The position numbers and the translations under genes were made by a program. A stretch of DNA of 64,000 nt from Felis catus (Eukaryota). A model generated the notes under the pieces. The model was not told where the DNA came from and ran no database searches. It saw only the letters and a program-made list of their open reading frames with translations. Position 1 is the stretch's first letter; every line of letters starts with the position of its first letter. The DNA lies in contig NC_058368.1 in assembly GCF_018350175.1 (NCBI RefSeq), positions 100,318,001-100,382,000 on the forward strand. Direction: 5' to 3'. Shown here piece by piece: positions 1 through 61,228 of the stretch.

Positions 1-147
1 GGCACTTGTTGGGATGAGCACTGGGTGTTGTATGTAAGTGATGAATCACGGGACTCTACCCCCAGAACCAAGAGCACACTATAGGCACTGTCTGTTAGCT
101 AACTTGACAGTAAATTATATTTTAAAAATAATGAAATAAATAAATAA
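1..147 (+). mobile_element. 3' end of carnivore LINE-1 (3'UTR and A-rich tail), truncated by window start
   Basis: GATGAGCACTGGGTGTTGTATG...AAATTATATTT then (AAAT)n tail; the same motif occurs in the L1 at 13450-13500. Confidence 0.85.
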
Positions 148-11550: not shown

Positions 11551-11782
11551 TTGTTTGTTTGTCATGTTTATTTATTTATTTTTGAAAGCAAGAAAAAGAC
11601 AGAGAAAGAGTGGGGGGTGGGGGGAGGGGTGTAGACAGAAAGAGGGAAAGAGAGAATCCCAAGCAGGCTCTGTGCTGTCAGTGTGGAGCCTGACGCAGGG
11701 CTGGAACTCATGAACCATGAGATCATGACCTGAGCCAAAATCAAGAGTTGGATGCTTAACCGACTGAGCCACCTGGATGCCC
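11551..11782 (-). mobile_element. Carnivore SINE
   Basis: CGACTGAGCCACCTGGATGCCC head and TTTATTTATT tail. Confidence 0.95.
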
Positions 11783-11852
11783 TGCCTCTACACGGTTTAA
11801 AGGAAAAACAATCATAATATGAAACAGCAAATTTGAAGGTATTAGAAAGTGT

Positions 11853-12070
11853 GGGGGATGCCTGGATGGCTCAGTTGGTGGGCAGCTGACTCTTGATTTC
11901 AGTCTCGGTCGTGGTCTTGCATTTCATGGGTTTGAGCCCCATATCAGGCTCCGCGCTGACAGTGCAGAGCCTGTTGGTGATTCTCTCACGCACGCGCTCT
12001 CTCTGTCCATTCAGTGTGCTCTCTCTCTCTTTCTATCAAAATAAATACATAAATAAATTTTTTAAAAAGA
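11853..12070 (+). mobile_element. Carnivore SINE with long TSD
   Basis: GGGGGATGCCTGGATGGCTCAG head; flanked by ATTTGAAGGTATTAGAAA(G/A)TGT. Confidence 0.93.
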
Positions 12071-12976: not shown

Positions 12977-13532
12977 CATTGCTGGGAATTTACCCAAGGG
13001 ATACAGGAGTGCTGATGCCTAGGGGCACTTGTACCCCAATGTTGATAGCAGCGCTTTCAACAATAGCCAAATTATGGAAAGAGCCTAAATGTCCATCACC
13101 TGACAAATGGATAAAGAAGACGTGGTTTATATATACAATGGAATACTACTTGGCAATGAGAAAGAATGAAACCTGGCCATTTGCAGCAACATGGATGGAA
13201 TTGGAGAGTGTTATGCTAAGTGAAATAAGTCAGGCAGAGAAAGACAGATACCATATGTTTTCACTCATATGTGGATCCTGAGACACTTAACAGAAAACCA
13301 TGGGGAAGGGGATGGGGAAAAAGAAAAGTTATGGAGAAGGAGGGAGGCAAACCATAAGGGACTCTTAAATACTGAGAACAAACTGAGGGTTGATGGGGAG
13401 TGGGGGAGGGGGGAAAGTGGGTGATGGGCATTGAGGAGGGCACCTGTTGCGATGAGCACTGGGTGTTGTATGGAAACCAATTTGACAATAAATTATATTT
13501 AATATAAAAAATTAAAAAAAATAAGTGAGTAA
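12977..13532 (+). mobile_element. 5'-truncated carnivore/felid LINE-1 (ORF2 C-terminus, 3'UTR, tail)
   Basis: ORF 12979-13281 GIYP...CTPMLIAALSTIAKLWKEPKCPS...WMELESVMLSEISQ is the L1 ORF2p C-terminus; TSD AAAAGTGCA(G/T)TGAG at 12963 and 13533. Confidence 0.97.
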
Positions 13533-23530: not shown

Positions 23531-25341
23531 AAGAAGGCAAAATCTACATTGAAAGAATAGGAAAACAAGAGAATTGTTTTCTGCTTGATCATTGACAATG
23601 TTCTAGCAGGTTTATCCAATTTTTGTAGCACAATAAAGATATGTAATGGAAACTGGGTAAAAGGATAGAGGCAGATGTTTAATTGTAATAATTGAATGAA
23701 CAATTAGATGTCAGCTCTTTGGCAGATGATATACAGTGAAATGCACTTCTGTACCAATTATTTTCAGTAGCTAGCTCTTGAGTATAAAAATGTGCTCAGT
23801 GTTGAATCGAAATATGAAGAATACAAACTCCCTGGTATCTTGATGGGAGGTGACAGTTGAATAGTAGGGGATAAGAAATGGACACAAAGCAGAAATGGTG
23901 CTCCAAAATGGGAACATCCTGTGTGGTGTTAGGCACAGGTAGCAGTCTTCCTAAAAGGGGTAAATGGTCCAGTAGCGGAGGTTGCTAAGTGCTTTCATTG
24001 GTACTAAGTAGCCTACCAAGGCAGCTGCTTGATTAGGAAACTGAGTATCAGACTGGTTGGTAATAAGCAATTGAAAGACTAGGCGGAGTAGTTCATGAAC
24101 TTGATAAAAGAGTCAACACGATGTTGAGGAAGCTGGCTTTCTTGCCATCCGCTCTATAATCTAGCAGCTCTGTTCCAACGCAACTACACTACCTCCACGC
24201 TTTGGCATGTGGTTTAAGATTTAGCAACAGATTGCACAGAAGAAGCAAACCAACAAACAATCCAAGCAAAAGCAAACTCATGGACTATGTAGGAAAGTAT
24301 ATATAAGCGTAGGCTAAAATCACAGTGTAAAAATAATCACATGGAAACAATGGTAAACATGTAATCAAAAACATGTTAGAAAGAGAATAAACCATAACGA
24401 AAGAACTCTAAAAAAAAATGGAAAAATATCTGAAACAACATCTCAAAGATTGCTCTTTCACACTATGGCATGCTATTCCTTCGGCTGCCAAAACCAGAGA
24501 ACTTTTTTTTCCTGGGAAAACCCATTTTCTGTACCTGCAACACAGTCGGGCCCCTCTTGTGGAACCATTTAAACTGAATTAACACCTGACTCATTGTTAG
24601 AGCTAGTAGATGTTTACAGCAGTGGGAAGAAGATGTCCATTAATCACTCTTCAACAACTTAGTCCTTCAATAAATTAAAATCTGATTTTTAAAGAACAGG
24701 ACGTCAAAATATTTAACAAGATGGCAGTGAAACTATGCTCTCTGTAGACCACGTCAAGGATGACACCAATTTCCACCCATATCTACTGGATGGAAGCAAG
24801 ATGTGCTTTTCTCGGAGTTTATACAAGGCAAAAAAAAAAAAAAAAAAGGGAAAACACAAAAAAACGGTATTTTTATTTTAACCAGATGTGAATGAATTAA
24901 GCCCAATATTTTCAAGTATTTTTAGTGCCATATGATGTCATCTGATTTTATATTTTCTACTGAGGGATAATGTGTGTTTTCAAAATTGTGAAGCCACTTT
25001 CCATGTATGTACTTAAAGTCATATGTATGATAAATGACAATAAACAAATTACAAGGCTGCAGGACACGCTCTTGGCTGTTTATGTCGAAAAGCAGAGAGG
25101 GAGAGATTTAGTTTTTCAATAGGAAATCAAATTAAAAGCATGTGAAATGTCTTCTGCTGGCCTTCAAGGTAGTCCTCATTTTAGTAATTATGTACTTGTC
25201 CAAAACAGGTCCAGAACAGGATTGCTGAGCTGTGTCCTCCTAATCCTACAACTTGCCTTTTTCCGGCCAACAGAGCAACCCATGGACTCCACAGGCACTA
25301 TGTGCAGTGTTACACGAGTCATCCAGAGAACCCCAGTTTTT

Positions 25342-25563: not shown

Positions 25564-27043
25564 CAGAGAACCCCAGTTTTTAAACAACCAGGTCCTTGCT
25601 GGTTGTTACATACTGGATCTATATTATAATGAACATATGTAATAATACAGTATTACATGCCATTAATATATAATACATTACCATTATTCTATGGAGTAAA
25701 TATATTATCGATGATGTATCTTCACTGACAGGCTCACACATGCTACACATCCCCAGTGCCATTAACCCAGATTAAGTGCTGAGTTTCTCAGGATCGTGGC
25801 GCCACTCGTGCTTGCTTGGACCTGGCAGGGGAACAAAGAGGATGGATGGACGAGAACTTGCTTCCTCACACTTTTCTCTGGGGCAGCAACGGGCAAGTAG
25901 CCACACCCTGGAGCAAGAGAGTGGCCCTCCATAGCATTGCTGAGTGAACTTCTGGAGTCATCTCTCCTGGGAAAGAGATTTCTTAAAAACCATTTAAAGC
26001 TTTCCAAAGGGCAAAAGCGAGATGGTCGTGAGCCAATGTTACCATAAATGCTTCCACTCTCCCTGATTTCATTTCGGAAATAAGGAAGGAAAGACGCAGT
26101 CACCACTGCTGGCTTGCCCACACGCCTCACCAGCTGCCCACAGCCCCCCCCCATCCCCCCCCCCCCATCGCTCCCTGTCTCCCATTAAGAAAAAGACGCT
26201 AAAAGTAAAGTTAATATTCCTGTAGGGACGGTGATGTGTTCAACGCTGTACAATTAAAAAGCCATTATTTCAGACCAAAGTCTCCAGCCAGCACCCACGC
26301 TTGAGCAAAGCACGTTCCGGGCCAAGCCCCCTTGTCCTCCTCTCCCTGGCGAAGTCCTGGAGGGGACGAGCCTCCGGGGCGGGAAGGAGGAGTGGGGGCG
26401 AGGACTCCGTGCCAGCGCCACATCCTCTGCCAAAGGCTTCGCAGGCACAGCAGTGTCCCAGTACTGTGCCCACCTTCCGTTTCCCCTCCCCGAGTCCCTC
26501 GTCCCGGTTCAGGCCGGACCCCGCTGGACTGATTTGGGGACCAATGAGGTGGCAGCGGCTGACGCGTGGATCCCGGTGAGGGTCGATTTCATTTCCAGGG
26601 GGAGAGGCCGCCGGGCGGGGGGCGGAGGAGAAGGAGGGAAGCGGGGGGCAAAAAGTAGGAGGGGAGGAGAGGAGAAGCCCAGCTGGGGAGACGCAAAGGC
26701 AGCAGAGGCGAACGAGCGAAAGGTTGAGAAGGAAGCGCAGGTTCGCGGACAGCGGCGGGCGAGTGGGGAGGCGGCGCGGGAGGGGCGTGGGCCGGCCGGG
26801 GAGGGTCGCCGTCAGGCGGGCGGAGCAGGGGCGCGCGGCCCGGTGGGGTGGGGGGGGCGGACGCGGGGACGCGGGGCGCGCGGCGGCTCCGGCAGCCCGG
26901 GCGGTGTGGCCGCGCCCCCGTCCCCGGCGGTGCGCCCCGCGTCCCCCCGCGCCGGCTCCGCGCCCGGCCGCCCCGGGGCTGCCCCCGCCCGCGCGCGCCC
27001 GTTGGGGGGCCGGGGGAGCGGCGCCGGCGGCCCGGCCGCATTG

Positions 27044-27051
27044 TGACGTAG
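27044..27051 (+). promoter_or_regulatory. CRE/ATF-like site near the inferred TSS
   Basis: TGACGTAG, just after GC boxes and just before the putative first exon. Confidence 0.6.
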
Positions 27052-27183
27052 CGGGGCCGCGGCAGCGCCTCCGCCGCCCGCCCCGCTCCCGCTGCGGCGG
27101 TTCCTGCTCCCGCCGCCGCCGTCCACCGTGCGTCCGTCAGTCCGTCCGCGCTTCCGAGCCGCCAGCGCGCCGGGCGCCCCCCG
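27052..27183 (+). other. Putative non-coding first exon (start approximate)
   Basis: (GCC)n-rich leader without ATG, ending at consensus donor CCG|GTGAGT (GT at 27184). Confidence 0.7.
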
Positions 27184-27836
27184 GTGAGTCCAGGTCCCCG
27201 GCGGGCGCGGCGGGGAGGCGGCGGGCGGCGGCGGCGGGCGGCTGAGCCTCTCCAAGTTTGCACCGGGAGACCCCGGCGGGTGTCGCCCCTGCTCCCCGCA
27301 GCCCCCGGGCCCCCTTTGTGCCGCGAGTCCCGGCGGCCGGGGCAGCGGCGGCGCCTCTGCAGAAAGGGTTTTTTTTGGGGGGGGGGGGGGGGAGGAGGTC
27401 TCTATAGTAACGGCGGCGGCTACCGAGCGGCAGCTTTACTCAGGGGAAGGGGGGTGGGCAGACAGCCCCCGCCTCGGTTTCCAAAGGATTGTTCCTTCCC
27501 TTTGCCCGTTTCGTGTGGTTATTATCCTGGCTGCCACCTCGGAGGCAGGGATGGGCAGTGCCCCAGCGCCTGAAAGCCGAGATAACGAGGGGCGAAGTAA
27601 TAGTAACAGCGACAGGACCCAATCACGATAATAATACACGCGAAAGGGGGGCGCCTGGGGTTGTGCCGCCCAGGGGAGCCCCGCGCGCATCCCCGGAGCT
27701 CCCTGGCTGCCCCGTCCAGCCGGGGCTGCGACCTGCCCCTCCGGCGCTGTCCTGCGTCCCGGGCTCGTCCGCGTCGATTTTAGCCGCGAATGTGCCTCTC
27801 TTGGCCTTCTCTCGTGGTGATGACTTTCATCTGCAG

Positions 27837-29567: not shown

Positions 29568-29768
29568 TTTAAAAAAATATGTTTATTTATTTATTTGGAG
29601 GGAGAGAAAGTGTGAGCAGGGGAGAGGGCGCAGAGAGGGAGAGAATCCCCAGCAGGCTCCACGCTCAGCGCAGAGCCCAGTGCGGGGCTTGATCCCATGA
29701 CCGTGAGATCATGACCTCTGCAGAAATCCAAAGTCGGACTCTTAACCGACTGAGCCACCCGGGTGCCT
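29568..29768 (-). mobile_element. Carnivore SINE
   Basis: CGACTGAGCCACCCGGGTGCC head; TSD CTTGTG(C/T)ACCTTT. Confidence 0.95.
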
Positions 29769-29960
29769 CATTCTTGTGTACCTTTGATTGACGTGCAGGT
29801 TTAGTTACAAGAAATAATTTACCGAAAATGGATCAGTAATGAATCGGTTACTACTATGATATATACTTTGCATGATTTTGCACTTTATGTGGATAGCTAG
29901 ATTTCATAATTGGCTGTTTCCATCTTAGCTCTCTTTTAAGCTTTAAAAGTTAGTGACCAG

Positions 29961-30170
29961 GGCGAGGCGCCTGGGTGGCTCAGTTAGTTAAGCATCCAAC
30001 TTTGGCTCAGGTCATGATCTCATGGTGCTTGAGTTCAAGCCCAGCGACGGGCTCTGTGCTGTCAGCTCAAAGCCTGGAGCCTGCTTCAGATTCTCTGTCT
30101 CTCTCTCTCTGTCTGCCCCTCCCCTGATTGCGCTCTATTTCTCTCTCAAAAATAAACATTAAAAAAAAAA
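29961..30170 (+). mobile_element. Carnivore SINE (SINEC_Fc type)
   Basis: GGCGCCTGGGTGGCTCAG head; TSD AAAAGTTAGTGACCA. Confidence 0.95.
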
Positions 30171-35530: not shown

Positions 35531-35734
35531 GGGGCGCCTGGGTGGCTCAGTGGGTTAAGCATCCAACTTTAGCTCAATGTGTGTTTTTGAGCCCCACACA
35601 TTGGGGTCTACAGTGACAGCACAGAGACCACTTCAGATCCTCTGTCTCCCTCTCTCTCTGCCTCTCCCCCGCTTCCGTGCTCTCTCTCTCTCTCAAAAAT
35701 AAATTAAAAACATTAAAAAAACAAATTAAAAAAA
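35531..35734 (+). mobile_element. Carnivore SINE (first of a tandem pair)
   Basis: GGGGCGCCTGGGTGGCTCAG head; left TSD AAGAGCTATAATCCA. Confidence 0.95.
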
Positions 35735-35740
35735 GCTGTT

Positions 35741-35959
35741 GGGGCACCTGGGTGGCTCAGTCAGTTAAGAGTCCAACTTAACTCGCAGGTCATGATCTTG
35801 CAGTCAGTGAGTTCGAGCCCTGCGTCAGGCTCTGTGCTGACACAGCTCAGAGCCTGGAGCCTGCTTCAGATTCTGTGTCTCCTCTCTTGTGCTCATGCTC
35901 TGTCTTTTCTCTGTTTCTCAAAGACGAATAAATGTTAAAAAAATAAATTAAAAAAAAAA
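35741..35959 (+). mobile_element. Carnivore SINE (second of a tandem pair)
   Basis: GGGGCACCTGGGTGGCTCAG head; flanked by AAAAGCTGT. Confidence 0.95.
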
Positions 35960-37330
35960 GCTGTAATCCAGAAGAAAAATAATGGCCATTGTTGAATATA
36001 TACCACTTATTGACCATTTATTGAGTGCTTACCGTGTGCCAGTCCTTTTTGAAAAGTACATTGTAGCTAACCAGCCCCCTAAGACCTGTGTTCCCAGCCC
36101 TGTTGTAAGCTGCCGAGAATGAGGGTCAGAGAAGGAGCTCAGTCTCCCAGCCACCAAGTGCTGAGAGTGGAGTCAAACCCCGCCGGGCGTCACTGTTATT
36201 TCATGCGGCGTCCGTGCTCGTTCCTCTCACCACGCTGGGCGTGAGACCCGTGCCCGTGACCTTCCGAGCCTTTGTTCCCCCTTGACTTCCCTCACCCTGC
36301 AGCTTCCCTGGTGGCAGTGGGTCAGGCAGCCGCTTCTGCTGCAGCAACCTCTGGGGTTGTCTCCCGTGCAGGAGCCGACAAGGGCTGGGAAGGTCTCGGC
36401 TCCTCTCCACCTTCGCCTGGGTTGACAGCTCGCACGCAGACCCCAGCGTCCGAGAGGCAGATCGCTGCTCCTTGACCCTGCCTCAGTGAGCCCCTCCCTC
36501 TTTCCTGAGTGCAGTGTGCACCCTCAGAGTCATTAACCACACAGCAGCAACACTCAGCAGCAAAACTGGCTGCAGATTCTCCATTGGCACCCCTCACAGA
36601 CCGTTACGGTGAGGTGCTGCTCTATGCCAGGCTCCCCTCGGAGCTGTGGTCACCACAGTGAGCTCACAGATGTGGTTCCTGAGCTCGTGGCATTTCCATC
36701 TCTTCTAGATCTGCCCGGGAAGGGGGCTAGCAAAGAAAGAAAAGGCGATGTTTTCAGAAAGCGAAAGTCTGAAGGACTGATTCTACTCCCTTCTCCGTTC
36801 TCTGCAGCTTTACATCTCTAGGCACAAGCGTGTCTGCTTCTCTAGCACTTTCATCCCTCCCCTGGGTTGTTGAGAGTGCTTTAGATTTCCAGAGACTTAG
36901 TAGGCAGAGTAAGGGGGACACAGGCGCATCAGTGCATCTCAGCCACCCCTTTTCAGATGAGGGGGCAGAGTGACCAAATGACTGGCCGGACGGGGTTGAA
37001 GGCAGGGCTAGCTAGCCGGTCTGGTGCCTGGCGGAGCATAGCCTAGTGTAAGCCACAGGCGGCTTCTAAGTTATTTGTGATGTGATTATTGTCATTTTGG
37101 CTTTGATGTTGTGGTCTCTCTGCTGCAACTGAATCTGGCAGGCACGTACTACTCAGGAAGCACACGCACTGCCAGCCTCTGCCCATCTTTGCAGCCCCTG
37201 AGAGGCGCCCCTGTGTGCTCTTTTCTACACATGTCCTTCTCCCTGCCCCCCAGCTGCCCCCGAGACAGCCTCCCAGGTTCTCTCTCTAAGTGTTGTGTTG
37301 TGACTTCTTACACCACAACGGGCGGGTAGA

Positions 37331-49448: not shown

Positions 49449-49670
49449 GGGGCGCCTGGGTGGCGCAGTCGGTTAAGCGTCCGACTTCAGCCAGGTCATG
49501 ATCTCGCGGTCCATGAGTTCGAGCCCCGCGTCGGGCTCTGGGCTGATGGCTCAGAGCCTGGAGCCTGTTTCCGATTCTGTGTCTCCCTCTCTCTCTGCCC
49601 CTTCCCTGTTCATGCTCTGTCTCTCTCTGTCCCAAAAATAAATAAATGTTGAAAAAAAAAAAAAAAAAAA
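49449..49670 (+). mobile_element. Young Felidae SINE (SINEC_Fc)
   Basis: CpG-rich GGGGCGCCTGGGTGGCGCAGTCGGTTAAGCGTCCGAC head, B box GAGTTCGAGCC, pure A tail, perfect TSD AAAAAACCAGCTCCA. Confidence 0.98.
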
Positions 49671-59020: not shown

Positions 59021-59771
59021 CTTGTTCCCTCACCAGTGCATACGTGCATTCCGCGGCGTTAGCTTCCTTATTCTGTCACTTGTTTTCATGGCATCCATAT
59101 GACGGCAGGCCTTGCTCTTTTTCCAGCGGCAGAGTGTTTAAGATATATATGTTGTTCTTAGAGATGGTTCCTAAGTGATTTTTGCAGTGGATGTGTGAAA
59201 CTATCTCCATATCTGCCTCAAGTAAGCAACAGAATCTCTTCTCTCCCTCCCTCTCAAACTTGTGGTTACACTTGAACGCTAAGAGATGCCATGGCAGATG
59301 GCATCTTAAAATAGTGTTAGCAAATATGTTCACGAGTTAAAATTATAGAAGCTTTTCGTACCACCCAGTTTTGCCAGTGAAACAGTAAAAACTGAATCTT
59401 TAATGTGGAAACCGACTTAGGCGCTTGGCTGTCAAACTAAGTCAGTCAAGCACCATTTTCTGCTTGCTTCTTTGTTGTGAAGAGCCACATATTTGCTTAG
59501 GGAACTAAACTCCTGCCGGACAAGTCATTTTCTCATGTTTTTCTTCATCTCCCCACCCTCCTTGCAATCAGTGCTGTCAGGTCTCTCGCTCCACTAGAAA
59601 CATCCCATTAGGGGAGGAACACATTTTTTAAAAATTCAGTAATTTGAACTGGGGACTATTGAAATTACTGCAAAGTGTAGTTACAGGATATTTGAAAGAA
59701 AAAGAGTCTGGCTTTTATATAGAAGCAGTTATTTTATCTGAAGTAATGAAATGTTAGTAATTATATTTTGC

Positions 59772-60034
59772 TTTATTTTTATTTTATTTTATTTATTTTC
59801 TATTTTAGAGAGAGAGAGCATGTGCAGGGGAGAGGGGCAGAGAGAGAGAGAGAGAGCATGGCAGGGGAGAGGGGCAGAGAGAGAGACAGAGACAGAGAGG
59901 GAATCTCAAGAAGGCTCCATGCTCAGTATGGAGCCCAACACAGGACTCAGTTCCATGACTCACAACCCTGGGATCAGGACCTGAGCAAAATCAAGAGTTG
60001 GATGGTCAATGGATGGAACCATCCAGTCACCCCA
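59772..60034 (-). mobile_element. Carnivore SINE with internal duplication
   Basis: Diverged head; (ATTTT)n tail; TSD TTATAT(T/C)TTGCTTT. Confidence 0.9.
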
Positions 60035-60097
60035 GTTATATCTTGCTTTAATCCATCACTAAGATTGTTTCGTGAATAAGTTCTGTGTGGATATTCT

Positions 60098-60190
60098 TTT
60101 TTTTTTTTTTTTTTCAAATTTTTATTGAAATTCTAGTTAACATATAGTGTAATATTGGTTTCAGGAGTGGAATTTAGTGGTTCATCACTC
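60098..60190 (-). mobile_element. Extremely 5'-truncated carnivore L1 3' end
   Basis: Poly(T) then TAGTTAACATATAGTGTAATATTGGTTTCAGGAGT.GAATTTAGTG.TTCATCACT; perfect TSD TCTGTGTGGATATTCT. Confidence 0.85.
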
Positions 60191-60206
60191 TCTGTGTGGA
60201 TATTCT

Positions 60207-60420
60207 TTTTTTTTTTAATGTTTTTATTTATTTTTGAGACAGAGAGAGACAGAGCATGAGCAGGGGAGGGGCAGAGAGAGAGGGAGACACAGAATCTGAA
60301 GCAGGCTCCAGGCCCTGAGCTGTCAGCACAGAGCCCGACGCAGGGCTAGAACCCACGAATCATGAGATCATGACCTGAGCTGAAGTTGGGTGCTCAACCA
60401 ACTGAGCCACCCAGACGCCC
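60207..60420 (-). mobile_element. Carnivore SINE (SINEC_Fc type), stacked insertion
   Basis: Full head and tail; bounded by CTGTGTGGATA(T/A)TCT. Confidence 0.96.
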
Positions 60421-60435
60421 CTGTGTGGATAATCT

Positions 60436-60636
60436 TTTTTTATTAATTTTTTGAATTTATTTGAGAGACAGAGAGTGGGGGAGGGGCAGACAGAGAGGGA
60501 GAGAGAGAATCCCAAGTAGGCATCCCGCTGTCAGCACGGAGCCTGACATGGGGCTTGAACTCACAAACCATGAGATCATGACTTGAGCTAAAATCAAGAG
60601 TCAGATGCGTAACCGACTGAGCCACCCAGACACCCC
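60436..60636 (-). mobile_element. Carnivore SINE, stacked insertion
   Basis: Full head and tail; GAATCCCAAG-type subfamily. Confidence 0.95.
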
Positions 60637-60642
60637 TATTCT

Positions 60643-60665
60643 TTTTTCTTTAATATTTGAGAGAA

Positions 60666-60720
<55 letters not shown>

Positions 60721-60891
60721 ACACTCAGAGTTGAGGAGGGGCAGAGAGAGGAGCAGGGAGAAAATCTCAAGCAGGCTCCATGCTGTCAGCACAGAGCCTG
60801 ACACAGGGCTGGATCGCACAAACTGTGAGATCATGACCCAAGTCAAAATCAAAAGTCAGATGCTTAACCACCTCAGCTACCGAGGCACCCC
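60643..60891 (-). mobile_element. Carnivore SINE with (GA)n expansion, stacked insertion
   Basis: Head GAGGCACCCC; about 24 GA units. Confidence 0.95.
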
Positions 60892-60907
60892 TCTGTTTGG
60901 ATACTCT

Positions 60908-61122
60908 TTTTTTTTTTTTAACATGTATTTATTTTTGAGAGAGAAAGAGGCAGACTGTGAGTTGGGGAGGGGCAGAGAGAGAGGGAGACACAGAACCTGA
61001 AGCAGGCTCCAGGGTCTGGGGTGTCAGCACAGAGCCCAGTGTGCGGCTTGAACTCACAAACGGTGAGATCATGAGCTGAGCCGAAGCCGGACGCTTCACC
61101 GACTGAGCCACCCAGGCGCCCC
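60908..61122 (-). mobile_element. Carnivore SINE (SINEC_Fc type), stacked insertion
   Basis: Head CCAGGCGCCCC extended by a poly(C) run; T tail. Confidence 0.96.
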
Positions 61123-61228
61123 CCCCCCCCCCATGTGTGGATATTCTTAGTGGATATTATGCTGTTTGTTTTCTCCTGAGTAGGGAGTGAGGGTGTGGGA
61201 GAGGTCGAGCATGCCTCATCCTTGAAGA

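Follow-up and report, generated by a model that had tools for sequence, protein, structure and literature searches.

Five stacked retroelements and the recurring target motif at their junctions in a Felis catus genomic window

Elements and motif copies at the locus

The window, i.e. the whole stretch of 64,000 nucleotides of Felis catus DNA that was analysed, holds several copies of a short motif, and between these lie an A-tailed stub of 94 nt and four CanSINE-type elements of full length, all on the minus strand. The composition given in the initial annotation, an L1 3′ stub and four SINEs in a single orientation, was confirmed at 60097–61132. A-rich tails and the shared orientation were found in five out of five elements, which from left to right are here called L1, A, B, C and D, while the motif copies are numbered T0 to T5.

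SINE A (60206–60421) and SINE D (60907–61132) belong to a short-5′ group, and SINE B (60435–60636) and SINE C (60642–60891, with an expanded (CT)n tract) to a long-5′ group. Over 130 positions A, B, C and D differ from the leave-one-out consensus of their group at 14, 21, 26 and 16 positions, respectively. All four show CanSINE features (tRNA-like head, (CT)n tract and an AATAAA-containing A-rich tail), a layout as described in PMC13141329 and PMC9599045, and there are 27 related copies in the window. The alignment comprised 26 of these 27, one 5′-truncated copy having been dropped, and 22 were placed in the two indel-defined groups; two intermediate copies, one internally deleted copy and one of the youngest type were excluded. 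The mean distance from the leave-one-out consensus is 0.21 in the long-5′ group (n=10) and 0.12 in the short-5′ group (n=12). That the stack holds at least two subfamily types, as had been claimed earlier, is borne out by this division (B and C versus A and D). Matched by eye to the text of PMC4084570, the long-5′ group would correspond to subfamily I and the short-5′ group to subfamily II, subtype IIA, names that are based on the motifs in that text. Subfamily I has been assigned to the feliform ancestor, about 50 Myr ago, and IIA to a period from about 35 Myr ago, with some later copies (PMC4084570); carried over to the groups found here, these ages depend on 22 copies of a single window and on the motif matching to that text. 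None of the four stack SINEs is of the IIB type. The head of SINE D carries at 61119–61133 14 consecutive G and one additional base, compared to the usual four G; untemplated addition or slippage may be the cause.

The stub (60097–60190, minus strand) has a body of 76 nt followed by a pure A run of 18 nt. It aligns to an L1-like 3′ end at positions 1–125, the best among 3181 windows tested. This end in turn matches an element at 13.0–13.5 kb over 32 of 34 nt, and the latter encodes an ORF2p C-terminus, its reading frame matching human L1 ORF2p (PDB search, E 1e-15), while a Pfam search with its L1 ORF2 fragment gave no match. Compared directly with the 3′ end of the 13.0–13.5 kb element, the stub did not reach significance, as 9 of 3181 windows scored as high. 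The chain from the stub to 1–125, to the 13.0–13.5 kb element and to human L1 ORF2p thus supports its assignment as an L1 3′ end by similarity within the window, and the stub shows the features of a 5′-truncated L1 copy, namely homology to an L1 3′ end, a poly(A) tail and a TSD. Exact scans with the stub returned no match in metagenome contigs or in viral contigs, an exact scan of viral contigs with the SINE head none either, and a literature search with the stub sequence found no match. Three L1 3′-end types occur in the window (1–125, 13000–13520 and 60097–60190); the former two have their upstream 34 nt in common, and a 13-nt segment of 1–125 is missing from the stub. The end type of the stub may be the older, carnivore-wide one.

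The motif matches at 60083 and 60192 (no mismatches), 60421 (one), 60893 (two) and 61133/4 (one); the copy at 60637 is reduced to TATTCT, and a partial copy at 61146–61160 includes a second GTGGATATT, at 61150. Positions and mismatches, including the reduction at 60637, agree with those first noted. With up to three mismatches nine matches were found in the whole window, against a chance expectation of 1.98; six of them fall within 60083–61160, i.e. about 1.1 kb, and the remaining three are scattered. The 15-nt motif is locus-specific, and all six junctions of the stack bear it, one of them cut down to five bases. The motif as an intrinsic part of the SINE or L1 sequence was ruled out, since it is absent beside the other 23 SINEs. 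It is also absent from 13 supplements of PMC4084570, and an exact scan of metagenome contigs for the right junction of the stack gave no matches. The right flank, searched against sequencing runs from PacBio libraries, returned no run either, which speaks neither for nor against the stack.

All copies were read on the minus strand. T0 (60082–60098) is the terminal copy, joined to the left unique flank, and its final two bases run into the A run of the stub. T1 (60191–60205), at the stub head, has 15 nt and the same sequence as T0. T2 (60422–60434) has 13 nt and one private substitution, and T4 (60892–60906) 15 nt and two private substitutions. T3 (60637–60651) consists of five motif bases and 10 A-rich bases from the tail of C; it would make up a 15-nt TSD if the nick fell at the TT|AAA step in that tail. 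T5 (61134–61150), on the head side, is the sole copy that still has the original nickable step, which probably is TCTT/AG on the plus strand, between 61148 and 61149. The unoccupied site itself has a 9-nt direct repeat (61137–61158, 13 nt apart), which may be an older small duplication.

Independence of the units

Pairwise core identity among A–D is 72–79%, and this, together with the two subfamily groups, argues for independent insertion: the four SINEs are separate insertions, not tandem duplicates. Near-identity had been named at the outset as the sign of tandem duplication, and the values found make the latter unlikely. A and D rank 59 of 66 among within-group pairs by identity and have no rare states in common, nothing out of the ordinary for their group. 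In a test of neighbouring pairs, 4 of 26 SINE adjacencies were same-strand and within 25 nt, three of these in the stack; when the SINEs were placed at random 200,000 times, neither four such pairs (or more) nor three in a row ever arose.

If some copies arose when a SINE-plus-TSD unit was duplicated locally in tandem or by unequal crossover, and then diverged or underwent gene conversion, the most plausible case is that of B from C, as these two adjoin, belong to one group and stand on the high side of its pairs (78.5% identity, rank 4 of 45). They have just two rare states in common, though, which is the commonest value among pairs, and the order of groups along the stack (II, I, I, II) holds no repeated unit. 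The four SINEs are moreover scattered in the SINE tree (four changes), a weak check given that its support is poor throughout, with none of the 23 inner branches starred; and duplication via the TSD would give a full-length T3. Of the features of a satellite-like expansion, neither neighbours more alike than dispersed copies nor a repeated unit order was found, and we consider this origin very unlikely. An assembly artefact, merging unrelated SINE-containing reads, is practically negligible as an explanation: the units are 21–28% diverged from each other, and each junction has a locus-specific motif copy with private substitutions, which mis-joins would not produce.

An array of repeats and spacers kept by selection for some function, regulatory or memory-like, appears extremely improbable too. 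In its favour is only an outward likeness to a repeat-spacer layout; the stack may also be intronic and antisense, as a CpG island with a plus-strand splice donor lies 33 kb upstream of it. Against it, the repeats differ in length and have decayed about as fast as SINE divergence predicts for neutral sequence, and the “spacers” are common high-copy elements. Nor does the stack match a CRISPR-like array, in which uniform repeats alternate with unique, foreign spacers of constant length: the repeats here are of 5–15 nt and decaying, and the spacers are 94–250 nt of high-copy host retroelements. No Rfam match was found in the window, and the fold at the site is not unusual (z −1.59). A special hairpin at the site was rejected, as 18 of 200 shuffles fold equally well. 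The stack is most readily seen as neutral insertion debris, with no sign of function in its sequence.

The CpG island lies at 26500–27700 and likely contains a non-coding first exon on the plus strand, with a donor at 27183/27184, which suggests that the stack is intronic and antisense. Nine exon candidates from a crude splice scan appear non-coding.

Target-site geometry and order of insertion

L1 ORF2p nicks the T-rich strand near TTTT/AA and primes on the A-tail of the RNA, with a TSD of about 12–18 bp (PMC12809410, PMC13141329; 12–18 bp for L1-mediated TSDs in PMC12809410), and for Alu the visible TSD amounts to 15–16 bp minus the poly(A) length (PMC2836564). The open site of the stack reads TCTT/AG, compared to a TTTT/AA-like L1 nick. 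With the motif at six of six junctions and the units independent, the central proposal of the initial annotation, that the L1 machinery inserted the elements serially and independently at a single site and that the motif is the TSD, stood up. Judging from the sequence, the stack very probably built up over a long period, L1 ORF2p having placed five elements independently at one site by target-primed reverse transcription, from both the head and the tail side.

The copy directly before the head of an element was taken as the record of that element’s own TSD length, and the motif bases ahead of each head number 13 for D, 15 for C, 5 for B, 13 for A and 15 for L1. The copy of C is 10 bases longer than that of B and continues as the original site, so C was not copied from the site in front of B. 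When all 120 possible insertion orders were costed, 40 required 3 mismatches, 20 required 4, and 60 required 12 or 20; in all 60 orders costing 3–4, C precedes B and one or more of the insertions must be on the tail side. With nicks on the head side the TSDs come to 17, 15, 17 and 15 nt, and a tail-side nick for B, at TT|AAA in the tail of C, gives 10 + 5 = 15 nt, all within the 12–18 bp of PMC12809410. Since the 5-nt copy at 60637 adjoins a full-length copy, SINE B would have entered the A-tail of SINE C, unless later trimming shortened T3, for which a deletion of about 10 nt could be responsible.

TSD lengths were computed from present-day tail lengths, which shift over time, and on this basis every TSD is 15–17 nt in only 2 of the 120 orders, the other low-cost orders requiring one of 20–28 nt. 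The two orders with all TSDs at or below 17 nt place A (group II) before C (group I), at one extra mismatch, whereas orders consistent with the SINE ages require a TSD of at least 20 nt for A. With group I placed before group II, 10 minimum-cost orders are left, in which L1 occurs twice in each of the five positions. Among singletons, an automated caller found a TSD in 9 of 21 and misread one tail (48225, 13 A).

A second pair in the window served as an internal control. At 35531–35975 (plus strand; span also given from 35516) two CanSINEs lie head to tail with one outer TSD in common, and the series of copies is full, short (7 A + 5 bases; 35735) and full. A variant base is common to the middle and 3′ copies and missing from the 5′ copy. 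The second element of this pair appears to have entered the A-tail of the first one, with the same geometry as at T3.

From the junction lengths and the two SINE groups we infer the nick positions, order and ages of the insertions as follows. Each insertion would create two usable targets on the same strand, the original site on the head side and the T-tract in the new A-tail. The head-side copy would retain the TCTT/AG step (61148/61149), whereas the tail-side copy, merging with the new A run, would lose it and gain a TT/AA step typical of CanSINE tails. The stack probably grew from both kinds of target: SINE C would have been in place before SINE B, which entered the tail of C, duplicating 10 tail bases and only five site bases; the older-group elements C and B most likely came before A and D, of the younger group, and D was most likely inserted at the head-side site.

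The earlier suggestion that the same nick was reused about five times fared less well. Reuse of one nick in a fixed direction, which we regard as improbable, could have taken place on the head side (order L1, A, B, C, D, T3 having later lost about 10 nt by deletion) or on the tail side (order D, C, B, A, L1, the nicks falling within or beside the A runs). Head-side reuse leaves L1, A, C and D with TSDs of normal length, but without the extra deletion this order fails the TSD prefix test at T3/T4, with 20 mismatches compared to 3 in the best orders, and it sets A (group II) ahead of B and C (group I). The tail-side order passes the prefix test at the minimum cost of 3 and fits both the T0/T1 identity and the 18-nt A run of the stub, but it conflicts with the SINE group ages, with D (group II) ahead of B and C (group I), and nicks at T|A steps would imply TSDs of 28 and 26 nt. 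For a single nick there is the further difficulty that a copy fused to a new A-tail loses its T/A step (TCTT/AG becoming TCTT/TT), the head-side copy alone retaining it.

The stub had also been proposed as the youngest insert, which was not established: TSD lengths favour L1 first, while the clean duplication and the long A run favour a late insertion. Reuse of the intact nick grows the stack towards D and would make L1 the oldest element, in conflict with that proposal. Given present tail lengths and nicks at T|A steps, a 26-nt TSD is required in each of the 12 low-cost orders with L1 last, and all five orders in which every TSD is at most 20 nt have L1 first. The perfect repeat pair around the stub is real, T0 and T1 being identical; the probability of their remaining so is about 0.40, 0.15 and 0.04 at a divergence of 3%, 6% and 10%, respectively, and about 0.04–0.15 if L1 came first. 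The A run of the stub measures 18 nt compared to at most 13 nt in the group I and II SINE tails of the window and 20 in the IIB copy, and L1 tails have been described as longer at the outset (PMC13141329). An ordinary group II SINE at 25340 has a perfect TSD as well (19 of 19 nt), and among singletons with a called TSD perfect ones were found in one of four of group II and none of four of group I. As a rough estimate, a first position of the stub is slightly ahead, though short of even odds, and a last position and one in between are a little less probable, and equally so.

Related systems, rarity and neighbouring elements

The closest relatives of the stack are the felid CanSINE hotspots of Walters-Conte et al. 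2014 (PMC4084570), which involve the same SINE family and lineage. Felid CanSINEs have there been reported to target existing CanSINE loci often, leading to tandem arrays: of 59 loci, 21 had been hit independently at least twice, and up to six times per locus across species, with overlapping TSDs, and locus 122236 of Table S4 combines Felidae-wide and species-specific insertions with a nearly identical TSD. The four- and six-event cases in the available text of PMC4084570 are spread across species, and neither five elements stacked on a single haplotype nor an L1 stub is described in that text. In primates, tandem Alu insertion has been called common (PMC3415434). Alus entering the A-rich tracts of earlier Alus (Levy et al.) resemble the stack in using the same enzyme and in their sense-orientation bias, and their visible TSD is shortened by the A-tract length, as at T3 and 35735; their hotspot, however, is the internal Alu linker, whereas the stack involves the terminal tail and an old TSD. 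In Drosophila elements, double insertion keeps the TSD at the junction (McGurk and Barbash, 10.1101/158386). The tandem dimers described there are, like the stack, head-to-tail with a target copy at the junction, and include non-LTR elements with differing 5′ truncations, but they are mostly dimers of one family, with bigger arrays formed by unequal exchange, while the stack holds five elements of three types and unequal exchange was not seen.

Arrays of R2 and of telomeric retrotransposons are likewise built by serial insertion, with target copies between the units. The R1 elements show the same arrangement (10.1101/158386). R1, R2 and the telomeric elements possess a sequence-specific targeting of their own, in contrast to the stack, with the loose TTTT/AA preference of the L1 endonuclease and a site in unique DNA.

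The stack is a deep example of a known process. The initial annotation had called a five-deep stack unusual, and this holds for its depth, but not for the process as such. No account of five elements stacked on one mammalian haplotype was found in the literature covered (most subscription papers fall outside it, and absence is not claimed). Among the 22 SINE sites of the window other than the stack, one had received two insertions (4.5%, 95% interval 0.1–23%). For re-use rates of 1%, 2%, 4.5% and 10%, a simple preferential-attachment model predicts 0.2, 3, 65 and 1000 stacks, respectively, of at least five elements per million sites. CanSINEs number some hundreds of thousands per genome, as an order of magnitude. 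From these model rates and copy numbers we would roughly expect a handful to tens of such stacks per genome, bearing in mind that this is one window and a finding picked for its extremeness.

A stronger reading, which we think rather unlikely, is that of a long-lived super-hotspot in which TSD regeneration and nick sites in the tails act as a positive feedback, the L1 machinery having come back to the same 15–50 bp five or six times over two SINE eras, above a uniform re-use rate. If true, such loci would be in-place “tape recorders”, a heavy-tailed class in which TSD lengths order SINE and L1 subfamilies without outgroups. Should deep stacks exceed, genome-wide, the number that a uniform re-use rate allows, L1 targeting would seem to have site-specific determinants, and such loci would not be safe as homoplasy-free markers. 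Taken as a deep example of the known process, the stack is of modest value, as a teaching case of how TSD regeneration and A-tails draw further L1-mediated insertions. It also provides an ordering rule that needs one sequence only: an element whose head-side TSD is longer than that of its downstream neighbour is the older one, barring deletion. As a record of felid retroposition, for which it had been put forward, the stack is weak, its order being only partly recoverable from sequence and the youngest SINE type absent from it.

An older, separate CanSINE, named UP (59755–60050, minus strand), ends 31 nt from T0 and lies outside the stack; it is flanked by a separate TSD of 17 nt, contains a duplication of 37 nt, shares the orientation of the stack and is a sixth insertion in the neighbourhood. 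The only youngest-type SINE of the window (49449–49662, plus strand) is IIB-like, a subtype that PMC4084570 ties to felids, carrying two IIB marks, a perfect 15-nt TSD and a 20-nt A run, and is a candidate polymorphic insertion. Finally, two pairs of SINEs on opposite strands are arranged head to head, at 11554–12053 and 29576–30170, with gaps of 72 and 198 nt.
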